From a virus (taxonomy: Duplodnaviria > Caudoviricetes): a DNA stretch of 64,000 nt. Numbering within the stretch: the stretch's first letter is position 1; each line of letters begins with the position of its first letter. The stretch lies in the IMG/VR virus record IMGVR_UViG_3300024269_000024, positions 32,001-96,000 of that record. The stretch is one strand, 5' to 3'. Shown one piece after another: positions 447-34,617 of this stretch. Below the pieces are notes generated by a model that did not search any database, was not told where the DNA came from, and worked only from the letters and a program-made list of their open reading frames with translations. The position numbers and the translations under genes are program-made.

Positions 447-1169
447 ATGGCACAATATGTAACGAAGATTAAAACAGATGCAGGTGACTTGCAAATTGAC
501 TATAATGCGCTGGCCAACCTACCCGATGTTGTTACTAAAGAGTACGGCAATGATACCTATGTAACAAAAGAACTTGGTGCGGCCACATATGCTCCACGTG
601 GTATGGTTTCTCAAACAGTAAGCTATGGCGCAGACGATGATGAAGATGCTATTCTTATGGAGCTGTTTGCGGCAACACCCAACAATACACAGAGAGTAGT
701 TTATGCAGTAAATAATGGCTCTCCATGGTTTTGGACCATCGCAAAGACATCAGAAGACTATGGTTGTGTAATTGCATATAAGTATGGATATTGGGGTACG
801 CCATTCATAAAGTATAAAAATATTTGGGGCGGAACTGTTGGTAGCGAATGGAGTGTTACAAATCCTGAAATGGAGCCAGGTGTTGAATATAGAACTACAG
901 AATATTGGCGCGGTTATCCAGTATACACTAAATTAGTTGACTTTGGGGCGCTGCCAAAGAGCGCCAAAAAGTCTGTTTCTTATACAGATGTTAGCGTTCG
1001 TTCTGCTATTAGATGTTCTGCCACTACTTCTGCAGGAGATACCATTCCATTAAAGAACGGGAGTCAAGAATTAGCGATTTACGCATCTAATAAAAATATT
1101 CATATCACATCCAACTATGACGCAAGTAGTATGACTAGCTATGCGCAAGTGTGGTATGTTAAAAATTAA
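447..1169 (+). CDS. Putative tail fibre/receptor-binding subunit
   Basis: AAGGAGG RBS; 240 aa; 'NPEMEPGVEYRTTEYWRGYPVYTK' followed by a beta-rich C-terminus resembles fibre tip modules of Bacillota phages. Confidence 0.6.
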   Translation: MAQYVTKIKTDAGDLQIDYNALANLPDVVTKEYGNDTYVTKELGAATYAPRGMVSQTVSYGADDDEDAILMELFAATPNNTQRVVYAVNNGSPWFWTIAKTSEDYGCVIAYKYGYWGTPFIKYKNIWGGTVGSEWSVTNPEMEPGVEYRTTEYWRGYPVYTKLVDFGALPKSAKKSVSYTDVSVRSAIRCSATTSAGDTIPLKNGSQELAIYASNKNIHITSNYDASSMTSYAQVWYVKN

Positions 1170-1177
1170 TAATACGT

Positions 1178-1206
1178 AGGAGTCAACTATCCCTTGGCTC
1201 CTTTTA
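1178..1206 (+). terminator. Intrinsic terminator-like hairpin
   Basis: AGGAGTCAA-loop-TTGGCTCCT followed by a T run, just after the stop at 1169. Confidence 0.55.
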
Positions 1207-1226
1207 ATTTAAAAGGAGGGATATAA

Positions 1227-1538
1227 ATGGCAACAAAACGAGTTCAAATTATTGGTTCTCTGCTTAAGCCTAGTGCAAAAATATCTAATGTAGAGCTGTT
1301 GTCGGCAAACTGGATGGGTGATGCAAGCCCATATTATCAGGTAGTTGATGTCGAAGGTGCGACACCATGTAGCCAGGTTGACTTGACTCCTAGCATTGAG
1401 CAGTTGAATATTTTCTACGAAAAAGATTTGAGTTTTGTAACCGAAAATGAAGATGGTATTGTAACTGTATATGCAATTGGTCAAAAGCCAGAGAATGATT
1501 ACACTATTCAAGTCACCATTACGGAGGTGAGCTCATGA
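1227..1538 (+). CDS. Small fibre-associated beta protein
   Basis: AAGGAGG RBS; 103 aa; 'LLSANW.G..SPY.Q.V.V.G.T' motif common in phage fibre modules; ATGA overlap with the next gene. Confidence 0.6.
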   Translation: MATKRVQIIGSLLKPSAKISNVELLSANWMGDASPYYQVVDVEGATPCSQVDLTPSIEQLNIFYEKDLSFVTENEDGIVTVYAIGQKPENDYTIQVTITEVSS

Positions 1539-2294: not shown

Positions 2295-4226
2295 ATGGCT
2301 GAAATTAAAAAGTATTTATCTCTTGATAGACTGGCACAGTACGATGCTCTAATCAAAGCAAAGATTGATAATGATATTTCTGGCGTAAATGCTTCTATTT
2401 CTGATATTACATCTGGTTCTACAGTAGTAAAGAAGGCTGAAGAAGCTACTTCTGCAACAAAGGCAACTCAGGATGCTTCTGGCAATGTAATTACTGATAC
2501 ATATGAAACCAAAACTGATGCTCAAGCAAAATTAGATGAAGCAAAAGGCTATACTGATACTGCCGAAGCTAATGCCAAGGCGTATGCAGACGGCAAGGAC
2601 GCTGCTATTCAGGCCGCTCAAAAGGCTGGCGATGATGCTGCTGCTGCCGCTGGTGTTGCCGATGGTAAAGCTGTTAAGGCTCAGGGTGATGTTGACACTT
2701 TGAAGGGCTACGTCGGCACTATTCCTGCTGATGCAACTGCAACAAACGTTGTCGCTTATGTTCAGGAGAAGACTGCTGGCATCGCATCTGAAAGTGCAAT
2801 GATTGAGTTGGGCAATCGTGTTGGTGTTGTTGAGGGCAAAGTTGCTACTATTGAAGGCGATTATTTAAAGGCTGCTGACAAAACCGAACTTCAGAATGCT
2901 ATCGACGCTAAGGTTGCTCAGACCGATTATGACACTAAGATGGGTCAAATTGACGAGAAAACTGAGAGCTTGCAGACTCAGATTAATACTATTATGAACA
3001 ACCCTGATGCTGAGGGTGCTATTAACTCTATTAATGAGTTTACTAAGTATGTTGAAGATCATGGCACTATCGCTGACGGTTTCCGCGCTGATATTGACAA
3101 GAACAAGGATGATATTGCTGCTGAAGTGAAGAGAGCTGGCGAAGCTGAGACTGCTTTGTCTGGTCGTTTAGACACCTTGGAAGCTATCAATCATGATGCA
3201 TATATTGCCGCCGACGAAGCTATGAAGAATGAGCTTGATGGCGATATTGCCGATCTTGCTGCTGCTATTGAAGCTGCTAAGACAGATGCTGCCAATAAGG
3301 ATGCCGTTGTTCTTGCTGAAGCCCAGAAAGCCACTCAAAAGGCTGCTGTTGCTGCTCAAATTAAATTTAACGAATTGAATGAAAAAATTGTGCAGAGCGA
3401 CTGGTCTGTAAATGACGAGAGTGATTCTGCTTATATTAAAGGCAGAACCCATTGGGTTGAAGAAGGGTCTTATGAAGTCAGTGGAACTTTTGATGGTGAT
3501 ATTAGTTCTAAGACGTACATGAAGGAGCTTGGTGGTGCAAATAAGGGCTATGTTCGATTAACAAGTGATACTATAACAAATTTTGATAATTTTATAGATG
3601 GTGAAATTATTCTTTATGATGAAAAAAATGATACCGATTATCGTTATAGTGTAGATATTGTTAAAATAAATAATGATATAAGTGCCACGGATAGAGTCGT
3701 TGCTGGCACTGTTTATGGTTTCGCTTCTAGTGATGGAGATATAATTATCGCAACAGAAGGCAGCGCTGGACTTGTAACAGTTTATGCTGGTGGTAGACAA
3801 GGGATGCGTGTCCCGCTAACAGGCCCTGGCATTTGGGTATGGTACGACAATAGCGGCACCAATTTAGTTAAGATGGAATATATTTCTAGTTATAGTTTCA
3901 GATTTGCAGATGAAGTGGCTCATCCATTAGATGAAAAATTTATCCCAGATTCTATTGCGCGTGAGTCTGATATTGAAGCTCTTGAGAGTGCCGACAATGC
4001 TCTATCTGGACGTTTGGATGCTCTGGAAGCTATTGATCATAGCCATAGTAATAAGACTATTCTGGATAGTATTACTGCCGAAAATATTACCACTTGGAAC
4101 ACTGTTACTTCTAAGGCTGCACAAGCAGATTTAACTGCTGTTGGCGACAGAGTTACTGCAATTGAGACTTGGCGTGATAATTTCGTTGAAATTTCTGAGG
4201 AAGAAATTAACGGCATGTTCGCCTAA
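2295..4226 (+). CDS. Ala-rich coiled-coil fibre protein with an inserted globular cassette
   Basis: AAGGAG RBS; 643 aa; heptad-like Ala/Asp/Lys-rich shaft; AT-richer insert at about 3390-3960; shares motifs with the 21857 gene. Confidence 0.7.
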   Translation: MAEIKKYLSLDRLAQYDALIKAKIDNDISGVNASISDITSGSTVVKKAEEATSATKATQDASGNVITDTYETKTDAQAKLDEAKGYTDTAEANAKAYADGKDAAIQAAQKAGDDAAAAAGVADGKAVKAQGDVDTLKGYVGTIPADATATNVVAYVQEKTAGIASESAMIELGNRVGVVEGKVATIEGDYLKAADKTELQNAIDAKVAQTDYDTKMGQIDEKTESLQTQINTIMNNPDAEGAINSINEFTKYVEDHGTIADGFRADIDKNKDDIAAEVKRAGEAETALSGRLDTLEAINHDAYIAADEAMKNELDGDIADLAAAIEAAKTDAANKDAVVLAEAQKATQKAAVAAQIKFNELNEKIVQSDWSVNDESDSAYIKGRTHWVEEGSYEVSGTFDGDISSKTYMKELGGANKGYVRLTSDTITNFDNFIDGEIILYDEKNDTDYRYSVDIVKINNDISATDRVVAGTVYGFASSDGDIIIATEGSAGLVTVYAGGRQGMRVPLTGPGIWVWYDNSGTNLVKMEYISSYSFRFADEVAHPLDEKFIPDSIARESDIEALESADNALSGRLDALEAIDHSHSNKTILDSITAENITTWNTVTSKAAQADLTAVGDRVTAIETWRDNFVEISEEEINGMFA

Positions 4227-4305: not shown

Positions 4306-5676
4306 ATGGCAAAGATTGATATTACCTTTAATAATAAAAATTACTCTATTCACGAATCCTCTCTTTCTGACGTTTCTGACGCTTTAAAGTCTCACTTATC
4401 CACTACCATGAGTGGTTCTGGTGCAATGATTAATCTTGGTGGAGATTCTTATAGTGTTGATTCTGAAAAGTTATCTGCTGCTACTAATGCTTTTGTTTCA
4501 CATTTAGGCACTATTACTGGTAGTAGTTCTAAGGTTGTCGTTGGTGAAAATGAGTATGGCATTGATTATAATAAGGTCAATGAGGCGATTTTGGAATTGG
4601 AAACTGTTTTAAGCAATTTACATAATTCTGACAGTCCTGATATTCCGATTGCTAAAAATGTTGTGTTAGAAGTTAATAAAATAACAGATACTACCTATGT
4701 AGATGATACTGCTTATAACGACGAAGAATTTATTTTGCTTAATATCTATCCAAAAACGAATGGTATGATTTTTATCACCTATGGTGATTTGACCAAAGTC
4801 ATTATAGATACAAGTGGGGCAGCAGAGCCAGCTAAACAGCAAGTTTTCTTTGGTACTTTTAATGGCGTATCTGACTCTGTAACAACACCTTCTAGTGGCA
4901 TATTGACGATTGAGGGCGATTATAGAGATTTTGGTGTAGGATCATATGATACTAAGCATAATTTTAATTTTTATAATGGCATAACTGCTGTTCATGATTT
5001 TGGAAATGTTACTAGTCTTGATCGTACATTCTGGGGCTGTACAAATCTTACAAGCATAACTATTCCTAATAGCATTACCAGTATTGGTTATAGCGCATTC
5101 CAAAATACAGGTCTTACAAGTGTTATTATCCCCGATAGCGTTATTAGTCTTGGTGATAATGCGTTTAGAGATTGTGTAAATCTTACAAGCGTTACTATTC
5201 CCAATAGTGTTACTGATTTAGGTAATAATACGTTCTGGGGCTGCACAAGCCTTACGAATATCACTATTCCCAATAGCGTTACTAGTATTAAACATTATGT
5301 ATTCCATGAATGTACGGGTCTTACAAATGTAATTATTCCTGATAGTGTCGTTCACATTGGTCAGGAAGCGTTCTATGGCTGTACAAGCCTTATGAATATT
5401 ACTATTCCCAATAGTGTTACTGACATTTCTGGTAGCGCATTCCAAAATACAGGTCTTACAAGTATTACCATTCCTGATAGTGTCGTTCACATTGGCATGG
5501 AAACATTCTCTAATTGTACAAATCTTACAAGTGTTAGTTTTGACAATACAGATGGTTGGTTCGTTTCAAAACATAGTACTGCCACGAGTGGCACACCTAT
5601 AGATGTAACAGATCCTGTTGCGAATGTGACACTGTTAACTGACACTTATAGCAATTATTATTGGAAACGAGCTTAG
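4306..5676 (+). CDS. BspA-type (LRR_5) leucine-rich repeat adhesin
   Basis: About 8 repeats of 'F.xCTxLTSITIPxSVTxIGxxA' in the C-terminal half; three short N-terminal repeats; AAGGAG RBS. Confidence 0.85.
   Translation: MAKIDITFNNKNYSIHESSLSDVSDALKSHLSTTMSGSGAMINLGGDSYSVDSEKLSAATNAFVSHLGTITGSSSKVVVGENEYGIDYNKVNEAILELETVLSNLHNSDSPDIPIAKNVVLEVNKITDTTYVDDTAYNDEEFILLNIYPKTNGMIFITYGDLTKVIIDTSGAAEPAKQQVFFGTFNGVSDSVTTPSSGILTIEGDYRDFGVGSYDTKHNFNFYNGITAVHDFGNVTSLDRTFWGCTNLTSITIPNSITSIGYSAFQNTGLTSVIIPDSVISLGDNAFRDCVNLTSVTIPNSVTDLGNNTFWGCTSLTNITIPNSVTSIKHYVFHECTGLTNVIIPDSVVHIGQEAFYGCTSLMNITIPNSVTDISGSAFQNTGLTSITIPDSVVHIGMETFSNCTNLTSVSFDNTDGWFVSKHSTATSGTPIDVTDPVANVTLLTDTYSNYYWKRA
5030..5540 (+). repeat. 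Coding tandem repeats (about 66-69 bp) of the BspA LRR array
   Basis: Near-identical copies, e.g. AGCGCATTCCAAAATACAGGTCTTACAAGT near 5092 and 5434, and ATTCCTGATAGTGTCGTTCACATTGG near 5335 and 5470. Confidence 0.8.
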
Positions 5677-5725: not shown

Positions 5726-5862
5726 AAATGAGCATTCTATTAGAAATATTTCTAAAGAAAATCTTAATCACATATTTAATTAGTACTCATGTATAATGCG
5801 CAAATACATGGCTATTAGTTAACTAAGCTGACAAATTATAAATTTTGAAAGGAGATTTCAAA

Positions 5863-6564
5863 ATGCCTGATTCAATTAAAAAATATTTGTCTCTTGATAG
5901 ATTGAAAAAATATGACGAGTTGATCAAGACAAAGATTGACAGTGATATTGCCAATCATAAGCATAGCTGGAATGAGTTGAACGATAAGCCGTTCGGCGAG
6001 GAAAGTATTGAGCGCATCGAAATTGATATGATGGGACAGACTATAGGATTCTTGAAAGTTTCGGACAATACTGAGCTCGCTGTATCTCCTGCGGCTGATG
6101 GTATGGCAAAAGTTTGGCGTACTATATCAGAAGTTTCTGACTTTAATAACGCACCGTGGGTGTTGGTAGATGATAAAGTCGCTGCAATTTCTGAACTGAT
6201 GGTACTTGTATTTTTTGAAGATGTTGAGAATTACGAAGTGGAAGAAATCGTCTTTAATGCAACAAAAGGCGTATACTTCATGGACACTAGGGCACTGGGC
6301 TATGAAGCCTTTTTATCTGGATTTGCAAGCGATTCTAAAGCTACTGAACCTGAAATCACTTGGGATGGTAATGATTCATATATTAAGCAGCTTGATGAAA
6401 AGTATATTCCAGATACCATCGCTCGCGTAGAAGACATTCCAGAGATCGAAGTCGCTACAGACGAAGAAGTAATTACAATGCTAATGGAACTAGATATGCT
6501 CCCAACATTCGTTGATAGCGAAGGAGCTCTATTAATTGATAACAATGGTTCAATTCCAATTTAA
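5863..6564 (+). CDS. Fibre/adhesin subunit with IKKYLSLDRL N-terminus and KPFGE...YIPDTIAR cassette
   Basis: The ATG at 5863 follows AAAGGAG, so it is preferred over 5845. The N-terminus is nearly identical to that of the 2295 gene. Confidence 0.7.
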   Translation: MPDSIKKYLSLDRLKKYDELIKTKIDSDIANHKHSWNELNDKPFGEESIERIEIDMMGQTIGFLKVSDNTELAVSPAADGMAKVWRTISEVSDFNNAPWVLVDDKVAAISELMVLVFFEDVENYEVEEIVFNATKGVYFMDTRALGYEAFLSGFASDSKATEPEITWDGNDSYIKQLDEKYIPDTIARVEDIPEIEVATDEEVITMLMELDMLPTFVDSEGALLIDNNGSIPI

Positions 6565-6576
6565 GGAGGAACTTAT

Positions 6577-7761
6577 ATGACAAACATTAATTTAAAAAAT
6601 ATTGCAAATATTCCTGTTGTAGAAAGCATGAGTGATAATACTCATTTACTTGCGGAGCAGGAAGGAAATTATGTAAGAGTACCAAAAAATAGTGTTAATG
6701 GTGGTGGCTCTGACATCCCAATGTCGCGTGGACTTAAAAAAGTTGTCTATAACGGCAATAAGGACGATTATGAAATAGTTGATATGGATGAAATGTGCTT
6801 TGTACGTGTCATGGAAGACGTTATTTCTGAAGACGATCTAATTGGTGGAAAATGTACATATTTTTGGATAATAGAAAGTAATACAAAAAAAATTACTGAT
6901 GAAATGATTTTTGTAGCATCAGAAAATATTGTAGGCGTCGATGTTGCAGGCACGCTTATAATTCTCTTATGCTCACAAGATGGTAGTACCTATAACGACT
7001 TAACATTCAATAAAGGTGTATATGTTACAGACAATGGCAGTGATAAAGTTATTCAATCATTTGAATATTATGGAGAAGTAATTAGCCAAGATATCCTTCC
7101 GCGAGATATTGTTTGTGACTGGTCAAATATAACTAATAAACCATTTGGTGAAACACCAATCGAAATTGTATCTGAATTTGAATGTGAATTTTCAGATAGT
7201 TATCCATATAGCAACATTACATCAATTCCTCCATTTACTATTGAAGATAAAAAGAAATATACCGTTATATGGGATGGAGAAACTTATACCTGTACAGCAG
7301 ACATTAATTGTTTTGGAGATGCTAGTTGTCAAATTGCACAAGTACAACCATCAGAAGAGCCATTTTATATGCTAATGAACGAATATGGTGAAATAGAAAT
7401 ATATGCAGAATCTCCAGGAATGCATACTATAACCATTTATGGCGAAGAAACATATACTATTGATCCCAGGTATCTTCCACCTGAGGCGGGTTGCAGTGCG
7501 TTAAATGTTGTGGTTGAAATGTATAATTCTGATTATATATGTGACACCACTCGCGAGGCTATTGCAAACGCACTCAACTCCAGAAAGCCAGTATATATTA
7601 CGCTTGTAGATTTTAATATTGGATCTGGTATTGTAATGCAAATGTACCCATTAAAAAGGTTGGTATTTGAAGAAAACGGCAATATTAATATGGAGTTTGA
7701 GGGCGACCATCGTATTACATATAACACGGACGAAATGATTTTTGAAACCATACCTTCTTAA
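6577..7761 (+). CDS. Fibre/adhesin subunit with two cassette domains
   Basis: AAGGAGG RBS; acidic 394 aa; 'DWSNITNKPFGE...TIDPRYLP' boundaries. Confidence 0.65.
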   Translation: MTNINLKNIANIPVVESMSDNTHLLAEQEGNYVRVPKNSVNGGGSDIPMSRGLKKVVYNGNKDDYEIVDMDEMCFVRVMEDVISEDDLIGGKCTYFWIIESNTKKITDEMIFVASENIVGVDVAGTLIILLCSQDGSTYNDLTFNKGVYVTDNGSDKVIQSFEYYGEVISQDILPRDIVCDWSNITNKPFGETPIEIVSEFECEFSDSYPYSNITSIPPFTIEDKKKYTVIWDGETYTCTADINCFGDASCQIAQVQPSEEPFYMLMNEYGEIEIYAESPGMHTITIYGEETYTIDPRYLPPEAGCSALNVVVEMYNSDYICDTTREAIANALNSRKPVYITLVDFNIGSGIVMQMYPLKRLVFEENGNINMEFEGDHRITYNTDEMIFETIPS

Positions 7762-9664: not shown

Positions 9665-10804
9665 ATGATAAATTTTAGACAGTACAGCAATGTAACTAAA
9701 ATTGTAATTCCAGATGGAGTTACTTTAACAAACAATAATTTTGCTTCAAAATTTATGTATTTAAGCAATCTTAAAGAAGTTAAATTGTCCAATAAGATTA
9801 CTCGTATTAGTGCGGCATTTACTTCATGTGGAAGTTTAGTCAGCCCTATTTGTGGTGACAATATAACTGAAATGCAATATGCGTACAATTCATGTTATAA
9901 TTTGATTGGTCCGCCTGTATGTGGAAAGAATGTTATCAATATGGCTTCTGCGTATAATAATTGTTGGAATTTAACTGGTTCGCCCGTATGTGGTGATAAT
10001 GTTACAAATATGTCCTCAACATATACTAATTGCAGAAATCTGACAGGCTCGCCTGTGTGTGGTAAGAATGTAACTAGCATGATAGCAACATACAATTATT
10101 GTCAAAAATTAACTGGTTCCCCTGTTTGCGGTGAAAAAATTACAAATATGTGGCGTACATATTATGGCTGTAGCAATCTAACAGGCTCTCCTGTTTGTGG
10201 AGATAATGTTGTAGATATGTATGAGACATATTGCAGTTGTGTTAATTTAACTGGCTCTCCAGTGTGCGGTAATAAAGTGACTAATATGGCAAATACATAT
10301 AGATCCTGTAGAAATTTAACTGGTTTTCCCGTATGCGGGCATAATGTTACTACATTGGATTACGCATATTCTAACTGTTCAAATCTAACTGGTTCGCCTG
10401 TTTGTGGGCCTAAGGTAACAGATATGATGTTTGCATATCAATCCTGTTATAACTTAACAGGTTCTCCTGTGTGTGGAGATAGTGTTGTAGATATGTATGG
10501 TACATATCAAAATTGTACAAATCTATATGGCAATTCTTATTTTTATTCTGTAAGTGTAAATCGCGCTACAGGTTGCTTTAAAGGTCGCAATACTGCAAAC
10601 ATTCTACGCATTTACACAGTAAAGAATTCTACCACAATGACAACACTACTAACCAACAACACTTCTTCCCTCGTCGGCGCAGCCATCACATGGACTGATG
10701 ACATCACAACAAACGGCTGCTATTACAACACCCAATACAACATTTACATCTACCCCGTAGATGATGTAGCCGCCGCACGTACAGCAAACGGCGATGACGA
10801 ATAA
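9665..10804 (+). CDS. Cys-rich 23-aa LRR-like repeat protein (10 'NLTGSPVCG' units)
   Basis: Tandem C-x-N-L-T-G-S-P-V-C-G-x-x-V-x-x-M-x-x-[AT]-Y-x-x repeats; the C-terminus is homologous to that of the 15262 gene. Confidence 0.8.
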   Translation: MINFRQYSNVTKIVIPDGVTLTNNNFASKFMYLSNLKEVKLSNKITRISAAFTSCGSLVSPICGDNITEMQYAYNSCYNLIGPPVCGKNVINMASAYNNCWNLTGSPVCGDNVTNMSSTYTNCRNLTGSPVCGKNVTSMIATYNYCQKLTGSPVCGEKITNMWRTYYGCSNLTGSPVCGDNVVDMYETYCSCVNLTGSPVCGNKVTNMANTYRSCRNLTGFPVCGHNVTTLDYAYSNCSNLTGSPVCGPKVTDMMFAYQSCYNLTGSPVCGDSVVDMYGTYQNCTNLYGNSYFYSVSVNRATGCFKGRNTANILRIYTVKNSTTMTTLLTNNTSSLVGAAITWTDDITTNGCYYNTQYNIYIYPVDDVAAARTANGDDE

Positions 10805-11887: not shown

Positions 11888-11914
11888 TTATTACAGAAAG
11901 GAGGCAAGGTATGA

Positions 11915-19231: not shown

Positions 19232-19233
19232 TT

Positions 19234-21819: not shown

Positions 21820-21856
21820 TATTAAAAAATTATTTATTTAAAGGAGAGAATTGATT

Positions 21857-23728: not shown

Positions 23729-23766
23729 GGGGCCGCCCTGTTGATTACAACGGGGCGGTTCTATTT
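23729..23766 (+). terminator. Intrinsic terminator-like hairpin
   Basis: GGCCGCCCTGTTG-ATTA-CAACGGGGCGGTT followed by an AT-rich tract. Confidence 0.6.
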
Positions 23767-23785
23767 ATGTATGGGGGTGTTGCCC

Positions 23786-24124: not shown

Positions 24125-24137
24125 AGAGGTGTAGATT

Positions 24138-24566: not shown

Positions 24567-27356
24567 ATGATGGGAATTTCAATTTTAGAAGCATTACGTC
24601 GATCTGTTCGTTCTTTATATGTTAAGATTCCTACTGAGCTTAGTGTATCTGGTAACAAGCTGTTCTTGTCGCATAATGGCACACTATTAGACGAGGGTAT
24701 TGAATATAATCCTGGCGGCGGTACTGGTGGTGGCAGCGCAGGATATGTCACATTAAAAAATTTATTATATTCATCAAGTATTACAGCTGCGCATGGCAGC
24801 ACCGTAGAGCTAAAATTCTCATATGCAACTACAGAGGAAACAGATGACGGTAGTGCGAGTATTTATTTGGATGATGTTTTACAAATGACAACCTCAATTA
24901 AAAGAGGCGAAAATTCAATTGATATTACAAAATATTTAAGAAGCGGAACTAATAATATCAAGCTAACATGCTCAGATCCCTATGGCAACGAAAGATCTCT
25001 TAAATATACTGTTAGCGTTATATCTCTATCTCTTACAACCAGTTTTAGTGACGCAAAACCGTATACTGGTGATTATTTTGAAATTCCATATATTTTAACA
25101 GGCGATGGAGAAAAAATAATGCATTTTGAGTTTGACGGAGAGGACATTACTGAAACAGTATCTTCGTCTGGCACAAACTCAAAAAAGACAATTTATTTTG
25201 AAACAAGAGGGCATGGAACGTACACATTAAAAATGTACGCGGAAATGGAGCTCTCTGGTCAAACTGTTACAAGCGACGTTTATTATTTTGATATTATGCG
25301 CGTAATGGGTACGACGCCTTTGATTAGTTCAGTTTGTGACATTGTTAGCGCGAAACAGTACGAAACAGTTGGTATTCCATTTGCTGTTTATCATGCGACA
25401 GATGCTGCGCCCGTTGTTGACCTTATTATTAGTAAAGACGGTGTAGTTCATTCTCAAAAAACAATGACTGCGAATCGTGGAGAGCGAGTTATTTGGCATG
25501 CAAGAACAACAATAGTTGGTAATGTTGATTTTACTATTTCATATGATGGCGTAAGCAAAACTCATACTATTGCTATTACAGAAAGCGATATTAATGTGTC
25601 TGTAAGACAAAATGATATGGCATTTGAGTTGAGAGCCGCTGGAAAGTCAAATAATGACACAGATAAAGATGTGTGGGTTAGTAGCATTGGAGATGTATCT
25701 GTAGATTTTGAAAATGTTGGCTGGAATGTTCAGCAAAAAACATTTATTGTAACAGGCGCTGATTCTGGTTCAGAAATAAAGAAAAAATATGCAATTGGCA
25801 CTGGATGGGCTACCGATGACAACGGTGATACTGCACTGAGATTGTCAGGAGATGCGAGAGCTACAATCAACTTTAAGCCATTTGCTGAAGACTGGACTAC
25901 GTCAAAAACAATTGAGATGGAATTTGCAATTCGCGATGTTAATAACCGTGACGCAGTTGCGATTTCTTGTATGAATAATAATGTTGGTTTTAAGATTACT
26001 GCGGACACGGCTTCTTTGATTCGAAATAATGTTCCTATTGTAGAAGCGAAGTATGTAGATGATGAAAAAATTCATTTGGCGTTTGTAGTTGAAAAGCAGG
26101 TTATGAACGATCATACTGTTAGACTGGTTACATCTTATTTGAATGGTGTGCTGTCTAGCGCGGCTACGTTTGCTGAGAGTGATTCTATATTTCAAAATCC
26201 TGCCGTTAATATATCTGTCGGGTCTTCTGACTGTTCTCTTGACTTATACATGATGCGCTTTTATGATGTTGCTCTTACTAGTCATGAGTTGAGAGACAAT
26301 TATATTGCGGATAGCATGGATGCAGATCTATTGGCAGATAATGATGTTTATGTTAATGGTGCAATTGAATATAGTAAGCTAGAAAACAAGATTCCAGTTA
26401 TGAGAATTACTGGCGAACTTCCTTCTAAAAAGGCGGATTCAAATAAGAAAAAGGGCGGCAGAGATTATCCTGTTGATGTAATTTATACAAATAAAAGCCC
26501 AATTCCAAGTATTCAAGAGAATAATGTGTTAATCCATGTACAAGGCACGAGCTCCGAAGGATATATCAGAAAAAACTGGGACCTTGATTTTGAAAATGAA
26601 TACCAACACATGGATGGACAGTTGCCAACCGACTATTTTACTATGAAAGCTGACTATGCAGAGGCTACAGGCACGCACAATACCGGCAATGCAAACTATG
26701 TGCATACTTTTTATACTGCAGATAAGTTTAGTGATGATGCGCCTTTTGTCATTGATCCACGCGCAAGGTCGACGATAGCTGGATTTCCATGTGTAATTTT
26801 CCATCGCAAAACAGAAAGTGAACCATATACCTTTGCTGGAAAATATAATTTTAACTTTTCAAAAGATTCTGAAAATGTATTTGGGTTCACAGCTACTCGT
26901 GAAGATGGCACTCCAATTTACCCAAAAATTCAGTCATGGGAATTTTGTGAAAACAAATATCTTGCATGTAGGTTTAGACAAGACCCAGATGCTTCAGATA
27001 TTACAGAAGATAATTGGAAAGAATGGTTCGATGACAGATATCTTTACGATGGCGGTGACCTAGAAGACTTTAAAATTATGTATCGCTGGGTTTATTCTAC
27101 CTGCCAGGACAATGCAACAGGAGAAAATCTTGCCGATGCTTATGTGGATGTTGACGGTGTAACTCATACTAAAGATACAAAAGAATATAGGTTGGCAAAA
27201 TTTAAGACAGAGTTTAAAGAACACTTTGATTTAGATTTTAGTCTTGTTTATTATTTGTATACTTTTGTAATGTTGATGTGTGACCAGAGAGCAAAAAATA
27301 TGTTCTTGACTTCATGGGATGGAATCATATGGCATCCGTGGCTATATGACAACGAT
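24567..27356 (+). CDS. Exon 1 of a large (about 1978 aa spliced) virion-associated protein: Ig-like and LamG-like domains plus N-part of a CotH-like kinase
   Basis: 930 codons ending ...HPWLYDND; CotH-like motifs VQGTSS..Y.RKNW, MKADYAE..GTHN, GKYNFN, DQRAKN. The ORF track runs on into the intron to 27425. Confidence 0.8.
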
Positions 27357-28375
27357 AAAAATTTTTATGTCGTTGTAAAACCTTTTCTAATATACGGCGA
27401 AAATCATGAGAATGATAACGCCTAGGAAAATCATAAATAAGTTTTCGATATTTATTACTAATGATAAAGAGGTGTAATTAATTTTATGCCAAGAGTTAAT
27501 GTGCTTGAAAAATATATCTATTTAATTGGGCAAAAAATCAATAAATGGACCGTTTTAGAATTAAAGCGTGATAGAAGAAATTGCGACGCTATATGCATGT
27601 GTGAATGTGGGAATATAAAACCCGTCAATGTATACAATCTTATTAACAATAAAACTCAAGATTGTGGATGTGGCAGAAAAGCAATGCTTAGAGAGGCAAG
27701 AACTAAAAATTTAGTTGGACAAAGGTTTGGAAAACTTGTTGCTGTAGAATTGTTGGAAGAGAGCAATAAATTTAATCGCAGGCTGTATAGATGTAAGTGC
27801 GACTGCGGCAATGAAATCATTGTTCCAAGCAGTTGTTTGACCACAAATCATACTTCTTCGTGCGGATGTATTCTATCATATTACAACATGTATATTGACA
27901 TTTTATTGGATAAACTTAATGTTAAGCATAGGCCAGAATATACAATAACTATTGATGGACATAAATTTAGATATGATTTTTATTTATGTGATTATAATTT
28001 AATTATTGAATATGATGGCGAACAACATTATATGCCAGTTAATTTTGGTGACAATGATCCAATTAAAATGGAAGAAAATTTAAAAAGGGTTCAAGAACAT
28101 GATCGTTTAAAAAATAAATATTGTGAAGAAAATAACATAAGCCTTTTAAGAATCCCGTATTGGGAAAAATATAATATCGATAAACTTATTCACGATTGCC
28201 TACAACGACTGAACGAAAAGGATCTTGCTAAAACAGCTTAAGCAAGATATGTAACAGTCTGAACTGCAACTATAATCTAAAAATGAAATTGCAGAGGGAA
28301 GGTCGGCGGTAACCAGACCGTCTTGGAAGAACCTTCCCCGCTTGTAGAAATACAAGTCATAAAAGTAACAGAGTG
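27357..28375 (+). mobile_element. Group I self-splicing intron (1019 nt)
   Basis: The 5' exon ends in U, and ACAACGAU pairs with the IGS GUCGUUGU (27369-76) including a U-G wobble. P3 CCTTTTC (27381) / GAAAAGG (28215); P4 GGCG/CGCC; P5 ATCAT-GAGA-ATGAT; P7 GACTG (28207) / CAGTC (28255); P8 ATCTTGCT/AGCAAGAT; P9 hairpins including CTTGTA-GAAA-TACAAG; terminal G at 28375. Removal restores YDND|TCLG in frame. Confidence 0.9.
27486..28241 (+). CDS. Intron-encoded homing endonuclease (two Cys-rich Zn modules plus a Vsr/DUF559-like nuclease)
   Basis: Two 'G..F.K..V.....C.C.CGN......L....T..CGC' repeats, then 'RYDFYL....IIEYDGEQH'. It lies inside the intron and its 3' end overlaps P7/P3/P8. Confidence 0.8.
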   Translation: MPRVNVLEKYIYLIGQKINKWTVLELKRDRRNCDAICMCECGNIKPVNVYNLINNKTQDCGCGRKAMLREARTKNLVGQRFGKLVAVELLEESNKFNRRLYRCKCDCGNEIIVPSSCLTTNHTSSCGCILSYYNMYIDILLDKLNVKHRPEYTITIDGHKFRYDFYLCDYNLIIEYDGEQHYMPVNFGDNDPIKMEENLKRVQEHDRLKNKYCEENNISLLRIPYWEKYNIDKLIHDCLQRLNEKDLAKTA

Positions 28376-31300
28376 ACATGTTTAGGCATTAATAATGAAG
28401 GCTATCTTCGTTACGATTATTACCATGAAGATTTAGGACAAAACGATGCTGTTGGCGCAACCAACGTGTATAACGGATATGATTCCGTGCTATGGAATAA
28501 CTTTGCAGAAGCATTTAAAGATGATATTCAAAAAACATATAGCTCGTGGAGAAGTGGATATTCTCCGCTATTAAGTTACAATAATGTTATGAAATATTTT
28601 ATAACAGATCAGTCTGATAAATGGTGTATATCTATTTACAATGAAGACGCAGAATACAAGTATCTATCAATGTACAGGAATGGCGACGACTCTTCTTTCT
28701 TGTATCAAGTTAAAGGCACAGGCGAAGAACACTTAAAGTATTTTATAAAAAATCGTTTGATGTATTGCGACTCAAAGTGGCAAGCAGGCGATTTTATTAA
28801 TAAGGATACAAATACTATTTTATTGCGCCTAAACTCCCCTGACGGCATTGAGGATGATGCAATTAAACCAGATATGACGATTAAGTACAAAACATTCTCT
28901 AATATGTATACTGGTGTGCGTTATGGTACTAACGGCATATTGTCGTCTATATACACAGACAGAGGCAAACTAGTAGAACATAAAATGCCAGATGGTGAAG
29001 ACCCAAATAACCTTGATACATATATTTTTGGTGCCAACGAAATTTCTGAGCTTGAAGATATGTCGTTATTGTATGCAAACTTAATTAATATTAGTGCAGC
29101 AAGCAAATTAACAAAGCTAGTAGTTGGCAATAGTCATCCAAATTATAAAAACGATGTTTTAAAAAGCCTGTCATTTTCTAATAATAGACTGTTGAGAGAA
29201 GTAAATGTATGCAATTGTACTGGACTGACAATGACGCTTGACTTCTCGCTATGTCCAGATATTCAATATATTTACGCTACTGGTAGCAAGATTTCAGGTG
29301 TACAATTGCCAGATTCAGGTTTCTTAAAAGTCATTCATCTACCTGAAACGGTTAGTAACCTTACATTTGTAAATCAGCATCACATAGAAGAATTTATTTG
29401 CGAAGGATATGGCAATGTTACTACGATCAAGATAGAAAACTCCAATAACATTCCATTGCAAGATATTTTACTTGGTTGTGATTCTTCTGTGTTGGCATCC
29501 GTATCTGTAAAAAATATTAATTGGAATGTTAGCTCTGAGGAAAATCTACAGATAATTGTTGACAAACTAATAGCATGCAATGGATCGGTTGTTGAAGGTG
29601 CAGTTTATTTGCCAAGTGGCGTAACTGTATCGGATGATCTAAAAGTTACAATTCATCAGAACTTTCCAAACTTAAATGTTATTGATGATAATCCAGTATT
29701 CTACATTGACTATTTTAATTTTGATAATACAATTTGGGATACTGAAATGGTAAGTGCAGGCGAAGATGCAATTGGTCCACAGAAAGGTGATCCAGATGAT
29801 ATTGTGCAAGAAGCATTTGGATTAAGACACTTGTTTGTACAATGGAAAGCATTGCCTGTTAATGTAAATAAAAATCATCAGATTGATGCAATATGGCAAA
29901 CTCAATATTGGGTTAAATATTATGATAGCGACATATTGCTGTATGATTATTGGGCAGATCAAGGTAGCGAAGCAAAAGATCCAGTGTTAGATGGACCTAT
30001 ACCAGCACCAGAAAAACCTGGCAATGATGAGTTGCGATATTCGTTCAATGGATGGGACAATTTGCCAACGAATATTCAAAAATCGACAAACATAAACGCC
30101 CTCTGGTCCAACGTTTACCCCGTCCGCTTCTATGCAGCAGAAACCTCTACAATCCCACACTATGTACAATGGGTTAAAGAGGGCGAAGATGTTCATGATC
30201 CAATATCAACAAATGAGTGCGCTGCACCAAGTGACATTGTAACTGAAGATATTACACATGTGTTCTCTAATTGGAACAACATCCCGACAAATATAACTGC
30301 AATTACAAATGTATATGCAGAATACTCACCGTTCTGGGCTGTGCGCTTCTATAATGGTTACATCCTGGAAGACACTCAGTGGATACCAACAGGTGGATCT
30401 GCTGTAGACCCAGTTAAGTCAGGGCGCATTGTAACTCCTACAAGAGAAAGTACTGCACAATATGATTTTACATTCTCTGGTTGGGAAGGTAATTACACAA
30501 ATGTAACTGATCCTAGAAAAATTATGGCTACATTTGACTCGACTATTAGAAGATACACTGTTTATTTCTACAATGATGACGAGATATTGCAAACAATTGA
30601 AAACGTACCATATGGAACTGCAAATGTAACTTACACTGGCAGCACGCCAGTAAAAACAGGAGTGGATAATCCAGAAGAGTACGTGTTCAAAGGATGGGTG
30701 CCAGCACCAGAAAACATTACTGGTGACACCGAATGCTATGCGCTATTCAAGTTTACTGGATATATTTTCGGAAAATTGAGTAATGATAGCGAATATGGCA
30801 CTGTGGACAATCCAAACTGGGATGCAATTAATGCTTATTGGACCATAATTGGCTCCGATGTTGACGCTTACATAAGTGGATCTATGAGTAAATACGATTT
30901 CTACGCAAAGTATCAAATGGGTGGACGAATGATTATTCCTATTGCACTTTCTGGCAGTGATAATATCGTTGCCGATGTTGAAATCATTGCACGCGATCAT
31001 GACGATTTGGCAAGCGGCTCTGGTAAAGCTCCGCTAACATTCTTCTGTAAAGATTTGCCGCAGATAACTAAACCAATGAATGCAGAAAAAGACAATGATG
31101 GAGGATGGGAGTTGTCTGAAATGCGCACGTTCGCTAATGGTGAATTGTTTGACGCATTGCCGCAAGAGCTCAAGGCATTAATTAAGCTTGTAGCTAAAAT
31201 TTCTGACGGAGGCGCAACTTACAAGGCGTTAGTTACAACACACGATAAGATGTGGCTCGCATCGTATGACGAGGTTGGTTTTGTTGACGATGCTACGTAT

Positions 31301-31522
31301 GGACTATTGGGTCAAGGCACTTGGTATAAAGACGTGTTCCCAACAAAAAATAGTCGTGTAAAAACAATTATAGATGATACTGCTGCGGCTGGCTGGTGGT
31401 TGCGTTCCTCTCACTATGGAAGCATAGATAGCTCCTTGTTCATTCAGGTTACTAAAACTGGCGGTAAGTATTGTTACTTCCCGTCAAGTGCACTATATGT
31501 GGCATTTGGATTCTGCATATAA
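28376..31522 (+). CDS. Exon 2: CotH C-part, LRR region, InlB-B/Flg_new-like repeats, C-terminal C-type-lectin-like (DUF6273-like) domain
   Basis: Starts TCLGINNEG; LRR-like 'LREVNV.NC..L...LDFS.C..I..IYA.GS.I..V.LP'; five 'V.FY.....F.GW......T...V.A.F' repeats; ends 'WWLRS...F..V...G........VAFGFCI'. Confidence 0.8.
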   Translation, partial: TCLGINNEGYLRYDYYHEDLGQNDAVGATNVYNGYDSVLWNNFAEAFKDDIQKTYSSWRSGYSPLLSYNNVMKYFITDQSDKWCISIYNEDAEYKYLSMYRNGDDSSFLYQVKGTGEEHLKYFIKNRLMYCDSKWQAGDFINKDTNTILLRLNSPDGIEDDAIKPDMTIKYKTFSNMYTGVRYGTNGILSSIYTDRGKLVEHKMPDGEDPNNLDTYIFGANEISELEDMSLLYANLINISAASKLTKLVVGNSHPNYKNDVLKSLSFSNNRLLREVNVCNCTGLTMTLDFSLCPDIQYIYATGSKISGVQLPDSGFLKVIHLPETVSNLTFVNQHHIEEFICEGYGNVTTIKIENSNNIPLQDILLGCDSSVLASVSVKNINWNVSSEENLQIIVDKLIACNGSVVEGAVYLPSGVTVSDDLKVTIHQNFPNLNVIDDNPVFYIDYFNFDNTIWDTEMVSAGEDAIGPQKGDPDDIVQEAFGLRHLFVQWKALPVNVNKNHQIDAIWQTQYWVKYYDSDILLYDYWADQGSEAKDPVLDGPIPAPEKPGNDELRYSFNGWDNLPTNIQKSTNINALWSNVYPVRFYAAETSTIPHYVQWVKEGEDVHDPISTNECAAPSDIVTEDITHVFSNWNNIPTNITAITNVYAEYSPFWAVRFYNGYILEDTQWIPTGGSAVDPVKSGRIVTPTRESTAQYDFTFSGWEGNYTNVTDPRKIMATFDSTIRRYTVYFYNDDEILQTIENVPYGTANVTYTGSTPVKTGVDNPEEYVFKGWVPAPENITGDTECYALFKFTGYIFGKLSNDSEYGTVDNPNWDAINAYWTIIGSDVDAYISGSMSKYDFYAKYQMGGRMIIPIALSGSDNIVADVEIIARDHDDLASGSGKAPLTFFCKDLPQITKPMNAEKDNDGGWELSEMRTFANGELFDALPQELKALIKLVAKISDGGATYKALVTTHDKMWLASYDEVGFVDDATYGLLGQGTWYKDVFPTKNSRVKTIIDDTAAAGWWLRSSHYGSIDSSLFIQVTKTGGKYCYFPSSALYVAFGFCI

Positions 31523-31541: not shown

Positions 31542-31573
31542 AGGGCAAGTTTGGAAAGATGACTTGCCCTTTT
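31542..31573 (+). terminator. Intrinsic terminator
   Basis: AGGGCAAGT / ACTTGCCCT stem followed by TTT. Confidence 0.65.
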
Positions 31574-31617
31574 CTCTACAATTTTGGAAATGATAAATTG
31601 AAAGGAGATCGCTTATA

Positions 31618-33480
31618 ATGGCTGAAAAAAAGCTTCATGGACGTATTGTGCATAAGCATGATACTGCCTCAAATTGGGCCAAAGCAACCAGTTTTGTGCC
31701 CATGAAGGGCGAACTTATTATATATGATATTGATGACACACATGATTATGAACGTTTTAAAATTGGCGACGGCAAGACTACTGTAAATGCGCTGCCGTTC
31801 GCAGGTTCAACTAATGATTATACTATTACAGAAAAGAACAAACTAGCTGATATCGAAAATGGTGCTAATAAAACAATTGTTGATAGCGCACTTTCTTCGT
31901 CTAGCACCAATCCAGTACAAAATAAAGTTATTTATGACACTTTTGATAGCCTTGTTGGCGACGACCCAGTGTCAGATCAAATTACAAAAGCAATTGCTGA
32001 TAAAGTTGATTCTAAGGATGCGATCACAGGTCTGTCTGCGTCGGGCCAGACTGTAACATACACTAAGGGAGATGGTACTACTGGTACCATTACCACTCAA
32101 GATACACATATTACTTATTCTGCTGGTACTGGCATTGCGCTGGATGGTACGACATTCAGCAACTCTGGTGTGCGCTCCGTAGCCACTGGTTCTGCTAATG
32201 GTACTATTTCTGTAAACACAAATGGCATTAGCGCAAATGTTGCAGTTAAGGGACTAGGTTCTGCTGCATATACGGCTTATACCGCCTATGATGCGGCTGG
32301 GGCGGCAAACAGTGCATTGACAGACGCGAAGGAATATGCTGACGAACTATATGAAGGCATTACTCCTGAAAGTATTGGTGCGCTACCGATTACTGGTGGC
32401 AATATCACTGGTTATTTTAGACTTAAAAACCATGCGAAATACCCTGAATTTAGTTTCTGGCCTAGCTCACTTGCATCGGTGGCAAGTAAAATGATTGCAA
32501 ATGTTGCAATGTCTGATGAAGTCATCACTTCTAATCATTTATCTTTTAGAGAGTTGAGTTACGAGTCTGGAACTAATAATATGTTGCAAACGTATGAAAA
32601 TTACAATCTGCCTCGCGTCGATGCGGATAAAACCACAAATAACAATTACGACATACTCACGACAAAAAATCCTGTCACAGTTGCTCAAGGTGGCACAGGC
32701 GCAACGACAGCAGAGACAGCTTTAACGAATCTTGGTGCAGTATCTCAAGATGCATTCGATGCGCATAGCCATAGTTATATTGCGACTACATCTGAAAGTG
32801 GTTCATCTTCGTTTGTAGATTATAGAACACTTTCTTTTAAGGCTGGCACTGTACCTTATGGTGATACTGTAGATGGAAGTTATAACAGCCCATATGGCGC
32901 ATATACTAGTGGAGGAAATCAAGTTGACTATGGTTCTTTGCTAAGAGCGAATTTTTCTAATGCTTATTATACCGATCTTTGGTTTGATGCTAATAGAAAA
33001 ACACTAACATATAGACAAGTGATAAATGGTGTTTCTCAAGGCTGGAAGCAATTGGTGGACACCAGTGGCGCAACTATGACTGGTACACTTATTGCGGGTG
33101 GAGGATTTACTGTTAAACAAGAAAGCACTTGGCCTGCTATTGATTTTCAATGCGGCAGTGGTAACGATGGCTCGTTTGGCCTTGCCACAGGTACATCGAC
33201 ACTGAATCGAAATTATTTCTATTTCCGCGAGAAGAGTCAAAATTCTTCTGACTACAGTTCGCTGAGTTATTATGAGGACTATAGATTACCTTATCCCGAC
33301 AAAGACCGTACTAGCAATGGCACATATTATATTTTAACCACCAAAGATGTTGTCACTGTTGCACAGGGCGGCACTGGAGCTACAACAAAGGCCGATGCTC
33401 GTACAAATCTTGGTATAAAATCAGGCACATCACTTCCTGAAAGTGGCACAGTGGGAGACATTTTCTTCCTGCACAATTAA
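31618..33480 (+). CDS. Tail fibre protein with an Mtd_N-like N-terminus
   Basis: 'HKHDT..NW.KA..FVP.KGE.IIY...FKIGDG.T.V.ALPF', 'DSALS.SSTNPVQNKV', two 'TVAQGGTGATT...A..NLG' motifs; ends GTVGDIFF. Confidence 0.75.
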   Translation: MAEKKLHGRIVHKHDTASNWAKATSFVPMKGELIIYDIDDTHDYERFKIGDGKTTVNALPFAGSTNDYTITEKNKLADIENGANKTIVDSALSSSSTNPVQNKVIYDTFDSLVGDDPVSDQITKAIADKVDSKDAITGLSASGQTVTYTKGDGTTGTITTQDTHITYSAGTGIALDGTTFSNSGVRSVATGSANGTISVNTNGISANVAVKGLGSAAYTAYTAYDAAGAANSALTDAKEYADELYEGITPESIGALPITGGNITGYFRLKNHAKYPEFSFWPSSLASVASKMIANVAMSDEVITSNHLSFRELSYESGTNNMLQTYENYNLPRVDADKTTNNNYDILTTKNPVTVAQGGTGATTAETALTNLGAVSQDAFDAHSHSYIATTSESGSSSFVDYRTLSFKAGTVPYGDTVDGSYNSPYGAYTSGGNQVDYGSLLRANFSNAYYTDLWFDANRKTLTYRQVINGVSQGWKQLVDTSGATMTGTLIAGGGFTVKQESTWPAIDFQCGSGNDGSFGLATGTSTLNRNYFYFREKSQNSSDYSSLSYYEDYRLPYPDKDRTSNGTYYILTTKDVVTVAQGGTGATTKADARTNLGIKSGTSLPESGTVGDIFFLHN

Positions 33481-33495
33481 TTGGGGGTGAAATAT

Positions 33496-34617
33496 ATGGC
33501 GACAGTTTCAATTTCCGCTCCTTCAAGTAAATTCTCATATTTTACTTTAAATAATCAATCAGATATTAGTGCTGGATATAACATTCAATTTGTTGACAAT
33601 GGACGTATGTATATTGGAGCAGAAGCTTCATCTGGCACTAGTACTGGTGGTCGAGTTGGAGTCTTCGGTTTTAAATTGTATGATATTACAGATCGAACAC
33701 TTATACAAGGCATTGAATCATTAAGCTTTAAAATTTTTACAACCAATTCTGCAGTGGGATGGAATGGTTGTTCGGCAAGAATAGAATATATTGGTACAAC
33801 TGCAACAGCTCTTCAGGCTAATTGGAGGGTTGGTTCTAGTTCTGAAACAATTAGTCTTAAAGAGAATGCCAATGCGACAATTACTACAAGTAATCAAGAA
33901 ACTTGCTCTAATTTTGAAAATTTGATTAAGAACGCCGTATCTGGTCAATATTATTATTTTCGTTTGGTAAGAGAGAGTGGAATGGGCGCTCGTATAGATG
34001 AGAATATTGAATTAACAATTAACTATTCTGGTTCTTCTGCTAAACGTTTAGTCTCTTATATTTGGGGAACCTCTACACAAACATACACGTACCCTGAAAC
34101 GGCAATGACAAGCAACTCTTCTGCAAATTGTGTCGCTTCTGCAAGTTCAGTATATGGTACAAATTATGCTGCATGGAGAGCTTTTAACAAAAGCAATTCA
34201 GACCATTATGGTTGGGCAAGCTTAGATTCAGAATCAGAACCGTGGATACAATTACAAATGCCACAGGCGCTAGAAAATATTACAATAAAGCTTGTAAATA
34301 GAACGAAGGCAACTGGAGTTGAAGTAAATGGCCCTAAGGCTGGTTATGTACAGGGTAGCAATAATGGAACTTCATGGACACCACTTGCAAGTTTTAGTGG
34401 CTTTGATGGAACTACTTCTGCTGGAGTTTCTGGAACAATTTCATGCAATAACTCTATTGCTTATAAATATGTTCGAATTACACTTACTGAATCTGGTGGT
34501 GCTATAGGTGAAATATATATAACTGGAACTAAAACTCTGCCAGAAGGTTGGATAGAGGCAACTCCCTATGTTTACACTTCCAGTGGTTGGGAAAAGGCCA
34601 CAGCGTATAAATTTTGA
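33496..34617 (+). CDS. Fibre tip protein with a discoidin (F5/8 type C)-like domain
   Basis: ATG at 33496 after GGGGGTG; 'ASASS......AWRAF....W......PWIQ...QGSNNG..W...YKYVRI'. Confidence 0.7.
   Translation: MATVSISAPSSKFSYFTLNNQSDISAGYNIQFVDNGRMYIGAEASSGTSTGGRVGVFGFKLYDITDRTLIQGIESLSFKIFTTNSAVGWNGCSARIEYIGTTATALQANWRVGSSSETISLKENANATITTSNQETCSNFENLIKNAVSGQYYYFRLVRESGMGARIDENIELTINYSGSSAKRLVSYIWGTSTQTYTYPETAMTSNSSANCVASASSVYGTNYAAWRAFNKSNSDHYGWASLDSESEPWIQLQMPQALENITIKLVNRTKATGVEVNGPKAGYVQGSNNGTSWTPLASFSGFDGTTSAGVSGTISCNNSIAYKYVRITLTESGGAIGEIYITGTKTLPEGWIEATPYVYTSSGWEKATAYKF

Follow-up and report, generated by a model that had tools for sequence, protein, structure and literature searches.

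Recurrent terminal modules on separately encoded fibre proteins of an uncultured tailed phage suggest end-to-end joining in gene order

The 64,000-nucleotide stretch of phage DNA analyzed here (the window; bases 32001-96000 of the 158,032-base IMG/VR virus record IMGVR_UViG_3300024269_000024, with an estimated completeness of 95%) carries between positions 447 and 34617 a cluster of 27 open reading frames (ORFs), all on the plus strand, in which fibre proteins end in one of a few conserved tail modules and are followed by proteins that begin with a matching start module. The motifs are strictly terminal and widely distributed among other phages, and they pair as classes across gene boundaries. 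The succession of conserved tail classes and matching start classes suggests, short of proof, an end-to-end joining of the pieces that follows the order of their genes. Together with ~1.2 kb upstream of the window, where the cluster begins, positions 447-34617 may well be the module in which an uncultured tailed phage of ~158 kb encodes its fibres for host recognition, as many separate gene products, a reading that we hold to be evenly balanced. An earlier, sequence-only reading of the window had proposed that the ends are hook-and-socket pairs. All the motifs that it listed were found where it had placed them, and comparative genomics bears out a pairing of classes, whereas the finer code of cognate and non-cognate partners gains no support from covariation.

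In the arrangement that we propose, each piece would carry one of a few N-terminal attachment modules, namely an Mtd_N-like "socket" (of which there are three subtypes), an amphipathic helix, or an extremely conserved peptide of ~33 residues. Many pieces would also carry a terminal end module, either a ~90-residue DGG "hook", an ...EI..(L/M)F tail or a G.I(Y/F)(F/W) tail. The N-terminal module of one piece would dock on the C-terminal module carried by the preceding piece, and assembly would then be serial or branched and would roughly follow the order of the genes. One such chain may run from an "anchor" protein (19661) through the products of 20419, 21857 and 31618 to a tip protein (33481), and another from 1227 through 1535, 2295 and 5863 to 6577. 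Serial or branched docking appears to be the best explanation because anchor tails are exchanged together with what follows them, because one contig (L042) keeps two matched sets, because the modules are strictly terminal, and because the same tail is found on unrelated bodies; we give it about an even chance of being correct. From these sequence relations we infer physical binding, its stoichiometry, the order of the chains and the site of the anchor on the virion.

The anchor (19661-20368) consists of a conserved body, residues 1 to ~182, and an exchangeable tail that in the window ends ...YFDGGSAAGI. Relatives of this protein were found at 24 IMG/VR loci. When anchors were aligned (alignment A6), the bodies in 9 of the 12 other rows were 56-88% identical to that of the window, the remaining rows being L046 at 42% and two distant equivalents (G002 and L007) at 16-17%. 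Beyond ...PIC(N/D)C.GE the similarity ends abruptly, and each body runs on into one of two unrelated tails, a DGG dialect, ...(Y/W)(F/Y/W)DGG.A.G., or a tryptophan dialect, ...EW..I....YIW(E/Q/K)... The gene that follows a DGG-tailed anchor is of the Mtd_N type in 8/8 lineages, in L044 with an inserted endonuclease gene in between. After tryptophan-tailed anchors, another start type comes next wherever the locus includes the next gene (3/3), as it does after the two distant equivalents (2/2, non-Mtd_N), so that the matching start class was found in all five of the lineages on which the tryptophan dialect rests. The pairing of DGG-type ends with Mtd_N-like starts put forward by the sequence-only reading is in this respect upheld. 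Custom hidden Markov models (HMMs) identified A-type sockets in 7/7 DGG records, with zero of B-type, and B-type sockets in 4/4 tryptophan records, with zero of A-type. Contig L042 contains both anchors, each followed by its own fibre and socket type. On a tree of the anchor bodies, tail type requires two changes, both in the maximum-likelihood tree and in 200/200 bootstrap trees. Moreover, the tails of the fibres themselves resemble the anchor tail of the same dialect, and each again precedes a socket gene: in the DGG dialect a DGG tail is followed by a 21857-type socket and then a ...[DN]CG tail by a 31618-type socket, and in the tryptophan dialect ...TWGEM is followed by the second start type and then ...LTWGEF by the third.

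None of 13 anchor sequences matched any Pfam family, BppU_N included, at E<=1, and an anchor profile found no related chain in the PDB, where the best match was a ribosomal protein at E 0.67. An AlphaFold2 (AF2) model was poor, with a predicted local distance difference test (pLDDT) value of 57.8; tail residues 189-235 were disordered, and the N-terminal domain gave generic Ig/FN3-like sandwich matches only (Z <=7.0).

The first gene after the anchor (20419-21819) encodes a fibre piece with an Mtd_N socket at its N terminus and a ~90-residue DGG hook at its C terminus, ending ...IIMDGGNAVG. It scores 37.9 bits against Pfam Mtd_N (PF18454), above the gathering cut-off of 26.3 bits. The next piece (21857-23707, ORF 21851-23707) has an Mtd_N-like socket of the subtype MAIENAKTLNVRI...ENW and the tail ...VFDCGTSAV, and the piece at 31618-33480 has a third subtype (...RIVHKHDTASNW...) and the tail ...GDIFFLHN (...LPESGTVGDIFFLHN). 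These two proteins, at 25.7 and 19.4 bits, and the upstream protein G30862, at 21.4 bits, fall below the cut-off and are Mtd_N-like by custom HMM only. In the window proteins the Mtd_N match begins at residues 11-16. With E<=1e-3 as the threshold, a hook profile built from the last 90 residues (A4) matched 1598 representative proteins, 461 of them at E<=1e-10. Among the best 150 of the 1598, 131 reach the end of the profile, and 129 of these 131 end 0-8 residues from the C terminus; the other two stop 27 and 57 residues short of it. A socket profile (A5) matched 3373 proteins and started at residue 1-2 in all of the best 120.

A locus search with the single protein 20419-21819 returned only three loci, and a wider scan of IMG/VR was made with a DNA pattern for the conserved hook peptide NVNKLVQT. 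It identified 49 viral loci, of which 46 were true hooks, and a socket-type gene begins 14-109 nt after the hook gene in 46/46; no socket-type gene follows the three chance matches. In 185,579 prokaryote genomes the same pattern occurred at 22 places. One was a true hook, in a metagenome-assembled genome labelled Dorea sp., and a socket follows it; a socket follows none of the 21 chance matches. At a finer level, the ending ...I(I/V)MDGG(N/S)AV is paired with the start MAIENAKTLNV in 3/3 cases, a pairing that linkage can explain too. Termini are conserved above the middles of the proteins (66/37/49% and 53/37/55%). Genes of the 31618 socket subtype stand directly after a gene with a ...[DN]CG.. 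tail in L025, L027, L042, L044 and L087, and the proposed pairing of 21857-23707 with 31618-33480 is supported because in L087 a ...FDCG.. tail directly precedes a 31618-type socket.

In the PDB, the socket profile produced only a weak match, to the N terminus of hyaluronidase 6x3m (E 0.09), and the hook profile found no solved relative. The hook module also lacked a match in Pfam and PHROGs (searched with the window protein) and in deposited phage genomes (tblastn with two hook sequences). It represents a real annotation gap, because 1598 representative clusters carry it and these searches nonetheless missed it. Two natural fusions (L028:10713-12374 and L044:11310-12959) contain an internal DGG hook followed by a beta-helix-like head that ends ...GDYYVVK(P/R)I, and an otherwise similar gene of L029 stops at the hook. 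Hook plus head was the only fusion type seen: a hook and a socket fused in one chain occurred neither among the 150 best hook relatives nor among the 120 best socket relatives, the socket list being mostly near-identical sequences and hence weak evidence. Separately, the 15-kb locus of L042 has, at several junctions, endonuclease-like genes (N terminus ...GIDCKG..WEE...) inserted exactly between hook and socket genes, and such insertions between a hook gene and a socket gene are present in L043 and L044 too.

The 5' part of the cluster contains other end classes. It includes a 103-residue "TEV-domain" protein (1227-1538) with the ending ...TIQVTITEVSS, whose gene shares 4 nt with the one after it. 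Homologues occupy the same place in L017, L020 and L021, and TEV-domain proteins (...TIQVTITEV..) in general overlap by 4 nt a next gene that starts M..(K)IIG.TVG or MISGN.VG; the domain also terminates longer fibres (alignment A9). An AF2 model of 1227-1538 (pLDDT 85.5) shows a disordered N terminus (residues 1-12) and places the final, TEV strand (residues 92-100) within a beta-sandwich. Structural comparison by VIA gave matches to tailspike C-terminal domains and H-type lectins at Z <=5.4, the best being to tailspike C-terminal domains, values too low to assign a fold; a Foldseek search with the model returned zero matches at E<0.1.

The overlapped gene encodes a 215-residue fibre piece (1535-2182) with the tail ...ITYAEIEALFD and a conserved N terminus of ~33 residues (MSKIIGVTVGT...YIKNKP). 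Among 77 other database matches, 67 cover <=22% of the query, essentially this peptide, at 67-97% identity and are otherwise different proteins. Compared with L017 and L020, the N-terminal 33 codons show 16-17 synonymous changes and 1 non-synonymous change, which means that the peptide is conserved and not the DNA; by this comparison selection on these codons acts on the protein and is purifying. This N-terminal peptide is a stronger example of a shared end than any in the sequence-only reading. As a separate observation, the peptide (1535-1633) occurs on dozens of metagenomic proteins that are otherwise unrelated and range from 78 to 1330 residues, and the C termini of these proteins belong to a handful of recurrent types, for example ...QVQIITWEADD, ...LGQAILGQMVLA and ...IPNAEEASF.

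Downstream of 1535-2182, the 643-residue, coiled-coil-fibre-like protein of 2295-4226 begins with the N-terminal helix motif IKKYLSLDRLAQYDALIK and has the tail ...ISEEEINGMFA; its 435-residue homologue in L047 has the same start and the same type of end. The motif IKKYLSLDRL..YD..IK starts both this protein and the fibre piece of 5863-6564 (ORF 5845-6564), with a mutual identity of 60% over 35 residues (E 1.5e-7 in an all-versus-all comparison of 29 proteins). Between them lies a BspA-type LRR_5 protein (4306-5676; Pfam LRR_5 E 3.6e-58). The ...EI..(L/M)F tail was found six times in three lineages (twice each in this phage, L005 and L047), on three unrelated bodies, and in 5/6 cases the next gene has the helix motif (K)Y(L/V)...L..Y...IK at its start; the intergenic DNA that separates the two differs from lineage to lineage. 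This part of the earlier pairing proposal is therefore largely sustained, apart from the one tail that precedes an LRR gene. The peptide ATDEEVITML, which had been listed with these tails, is present (residues 204-213 of ORF 5845-6564, about 6454-6483) but is not terminal: it opens a ~36-residue C-terminal module, ATDEEVITML...DSEGALLIDNNGSIPI, that also ends several of the peptide-matching proteins and the 1330-residue fibre of L017. A single-protein locus search with ORF 5845-6564 returned zero loci. The next two fibre pieces (6577-7761 and 7824-9650) carry repeats that follow the pattern [DW..D...Y(I/V)KN(K/R)P]-globular domain-[(K/E)Y(I/L)P], and 7824-9650 starts MEKLTPLNGL and contains a Big_3 domain.

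Several results weigh against end-to-end docking. Gene order around hooks is conserved throughout the group, with hook genes preceded by one and the same kind of gene in many loci. Because of this conservation the adjacency counts (46/46) are not independent, correspond to few events and could reflect synteny alone; motif adjacency in related phages, which the sequence-only reading had named as a check, thus consists of a regular succession of tails and starts, yet within a group-wide conserved gene order. Across 37 distinct junctions (of 54), the similarity of hooks correlated with that of the next-gene sockets at a Mantel r of 0.53, as compared with 0.55 and 0.54 for the hooks' own upstream flanks. 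There is no hook-socket covariation beyond linkage, and so a fine-grained pairing code is not shown. This genome has three hooks versus four sockets, its ...DCG tail gene and the proposed partner at 31618 are 8 kb apart, and the tail of 2295-4226 precedes the LRR gene, with the N-helix gene 5863-6564 coming only after that. In L028 and L044 the internal hook is followed by a ~210-residue head without a socket in the same chain, so the module can act as an ordinary neck. In the anchor-body tree only one branch is supported at a strict threshold, and the branch of L046 is long.

The main competing explanation, which we regard as unlikely though far from negligible, is that each product attaches alone by its N-terminal module, that the C-terminal modules are foldon-like nuclei for folding or trimerization or ends recognized by chaperones, and that the succession merely follows a conserved gene order. 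Many trimeric fibres do fold from a C-terminal nucleus. C-terminal chaperone domains of the Peptidase_S74 type have been described (PMC12143355). The group-wide gene order, a covariation no stronger than linkage, and a hook that can be internal as the neck before a head domain are all consistent with independent attachment. What it does not account for is a non-fibre anchor with the same tail dialect as the fibres downstream, the exchange of tail and downstream fibre type together at least twice, the two matched sets kept in L042, and the ...EI..LF tail on unrelated bodies upstream of N-helix genes. Nor does Pfam detect Peptidase_S74 or another known C-terminal chaperone domain in any cluster protein; Peptidase_S74 is present only in the tail protein of 59511-61403, outside the cluster.

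Alternatively, the conserved ends might be boundaries at which fibre modules are exchanged by homologous recombination, kept by history and not by protein function. The fibres are indeed mosaic, and the N- and C-terminal subtypes of 21857-type fibres assort independently (L027 and L043 are 74% identical at the N end and 33% at the C end; L027 and L028, 48% and 77%). Homing-endonuclease genes are also inserted at several junctions. Yet conservation is at the level of protein, as the 16-17 synonymous changes versus 1 non-synonymous change in 33 codons indicate, the DNA between tail and start is unrelated between lineages, and the motifs keep a strictly terminal position and are conserved across 1598 clusters that have diverged; we consider this explanation improbable. 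Still less probable is that the shared ends are leftovers of local duplication within the cluster with no special role, as might hold for the SYK[IV]YAS start, limited to two adjacent genes here (2/647 distinct ORFs), and for the clear paralogues 9665-10804 and 15262-17679, since the ...EI..(L/M)F, DGG and G.I(Y/F)(F/W) sets recur in many other phages on different bodies, always terminal, and for these sets the duplication reading is already contradicted by the sequence comparisons.

Serial or branched docking could be extended to a more far-reaching and more tentative proposal, which we think somewhat less probable than not: that a large uncultured clade builds long or branched fibres of up to five or six products through a small set of reusable, mutually orthogonal joints, and that the DGG hook is the long-missing partner of Mtd_N. 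The joints would be the DGG hook with the Mtd_N socket (three subtypes), the tryptophan tail with a second socket type (three subtypes), the EI..LF tail with the N-terminal helix, and the G.IYF tail with a tip protein. If this were true, fibre architecture would be readable from gene ends, and two separate chains could coexist on one virion without cross-wiring, as L042 suggests. If the joints are real, one could predict from sequence alone how multi-protein fibres are ordered and branched in thousands of uncultured phages. They would give Mtd_N, a widespread domain linked to receptor binders diversified by diversity-generating retroelements, a defined binding partner, and they would offer natural plug-in points for swapping receptor-binding modules.

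That one fibre protein docks on the end of another is already known as a general principle. In the BppU-BppL "tripod" of TP901-1 and Tuc2009, the C-terminal part of an anchor holds the N termini of separately encoded receptor-binding trimers. The anchors described here differ from it, as BppU_N is found in 0/13 sequences and the anchor profile has no PDB relative. The long tail fibre of T4 is a single fibre assembled end to end from several gene products (PMC5537660). Like the pieces of the present cluster, gp34, gp35, gp36 and gp37 are products of neighbouring genes (NC_000866 gene row), serial joining in our case being deduced from class-level pairing. The cluster differs in having more pieces and reusable end classes in at least two dialects. 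No sequence link to the T4 joint emerged: the hook profile compared with the C-terminal 100 residues of gp36 gave an hhalign probability of 0.1% and a local hook HMM an E of 0.95, the socket profile compared with the gp37 N terminus gave an hhalign probability of 20%, and Pfam Mtd_N has no match to gp37.

In KP32, K11 and KP34, which are podophages of Klebsiella, a branching domain of the first receptor-binding protein (RBP1) accepts a conserved docking peptide of the second (RBP2), and the modules are exchangeable (PMC13352976). The ~33-residue peptide of 1535-2182 is an analogous, not homologous, short conserved N-terminal peptide. The sequences and the phage type differ, the upstream element here is strictly a C-terminal module or tail, and the chain here would comprise up to five genes in place of a pair. 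No Pfam family for a T4 gp10-like branching domain was among the matches of 29 window proteins (E<=0.01). As for the sockets, the N-terminal beta-prism of Mtd is "presumably" what links the trimer with the tail fibre (PMC10743442, section 2.5), and receptor-binding proteins are fixed by their N terminus to baseplate or neck or else to other fibre-like proteins (PMC12143355, introduction), a source that also speaks in general terms of connection through the C terminus. The piece at 20419 shares an Mtd_N-type N terminus (37.9 bits) with Mtd of Bordetella phage BPP-1 and HylP of streptococcal prophages. It differs in that a candidate partner, the DGG hook, is defined here, by genomics only; no partner of Mtd_N is described in the literature searched. 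That literature also yielded no description of the present motifs, with the limits that sequence motifs are hard to search for and that supplements were outside its scope.

The remaining end classes of the sequence-only reading fared less well. The SYK[IV]YAS start opens the CotH, Big_2 and LamG-like protein of 11915-14053 (SYKIYASENYV) and the 394-residue piece of 14065-15249 (SYKVYASQEYV) and no other of 647 distinct ORFs examined. With both occurrences in this genome, the class finds no support outside it, and the similarity looks like local paralogy. The G.I(Y/F)(F/W) endings are partly supported. Both 14065-15249, which ends ...GEIYWTYG (...NPTVNGEIYWTYG), and 31618-33480 have a next gene within 13 nt that contains short repeated Gly/aromatic units. 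At 31618 the next gene encodes a tip protein (33481-34617) that has an F5/8-type-C (discoidin) domain and, at its C terminus, a hairpin-like repeat rich in Tyr/Trp, and the succession of such an ending and such a tip gene recurs in L025 and L044. The pair 14065 and 15262 has another kind of repeat: 15262-17679 encodes an 805-residue tip-like protein with short Gly-rich repeats at its N terminus, followed by Cys-rich LRR-like repeats. The ending ...NPTVNGQICW.Y., as in 14065-15249, recurs in P0012 and P0031. Regular expressions for the motifs, written post hoc once the motifs were known, each matched 2-4 of the 166 ORFs of the genome, all in the cluster, where shuffled sequences would give 0.00-0.22.

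The cluster had been described as about 25 fibre-like genes. The span holds 27 ORFs, of which some are not fibre-like, among them those for a GT2 glycosyltransferase (10841), a small membrane protein (23741), a holin-like protein (24138) and an HNH endonuclease (27486). Pfam confirmed LRR_5, CBM_5_12, CotH, Big_2/Big_3, F5/8-type-C, DUF6273 and Mtd_N in the cluster. The heads named in the sequence-only reading were accordingly confirmed for LRR_5, CBM_5_12, F5/8-type-C, CotH and DUF6273, but not for LamG, as Laminin_G_3 scored 19.4 bits against a Pfam cut-off of 27.6. The gene at 9665-10804 encodes a Cys-rich protein of LRR-like repeats; it shares 56% identity with repeats of 15262-17679, and the two are evident paralogues. 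The glycosyltransferase (10841-11887, by Pfam) and the adjacent CotH-kinase/Big_2/LamG-like protein, together 10841-14053, are unusual cargo for a virion module within a fibre cluster. Three small genes (17682-19635), including a CBM_5_12 protein (19234-19635, by Pfam), precede the anchor.

The small membrane protein and the holin-like gene (23741-24473) are not fibre parts by Pfam and PHROG matches. They are followed by two large structural ORFs, 24567-27425 and 28373-31522, that are consecutive parts of one 2494-residue PHROG family, matching its residues 584-1158 and 1538-2024, respectively. An HNH endonuclease gene (27486-28241) splits the two, and the relative G002 has the same split of the large structural gene with a different endonuclease-like gene between the halves; an Rfam search found no intron RNA at the split gene (24567-31522). 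At its end, the structural pair of 24567-31522 has a DUF6273 domain (Pfam), which has been read as a C-type-lectin-like (C-lec) domain (PMC10743442, section 2.2).

The cluster lies between the terminase, portal and head-type genes upstream of the window and, on its 3' side, an endolysin gene (34674-35828) and a RuvC-like gene (35923-36420); two small ORFs, a 5668-residue ORF (37617-54623) and, last, the tail-tip genes come after these. Zero matches in deposited phage genomes were obtained by megablast with 447-24000 or by tblastn with 1535-2182 and with two hook fragments, and Rfam and tRNA scans of the window likewise gave zero matches. Fibre and structural genes lie in the 10 kb that separate the holin-like gene (24138-24473) from the endolysin gene, whose product is of the CHAP/PG_binding/SH3 type. 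Upstream of the window, at genome positions 27486-29884 (locus L003/L004), a virion structural gene appears shortened (213 residues as compared with 252-286 in relatives), and an HNH endonuclease gene lies 3' of it, possibly another gene interrupted by a mobile element. Tape-measure proteins correspond to about 1.5 Å of tail per residue. The 5668-residue ORF, on the plus strand, has a PhageMin_Tail (tape-measure-type) domain at residues 2354-2569, and if it is a tape measure the tail would be roughly 850 nm long, far above usual lengths.

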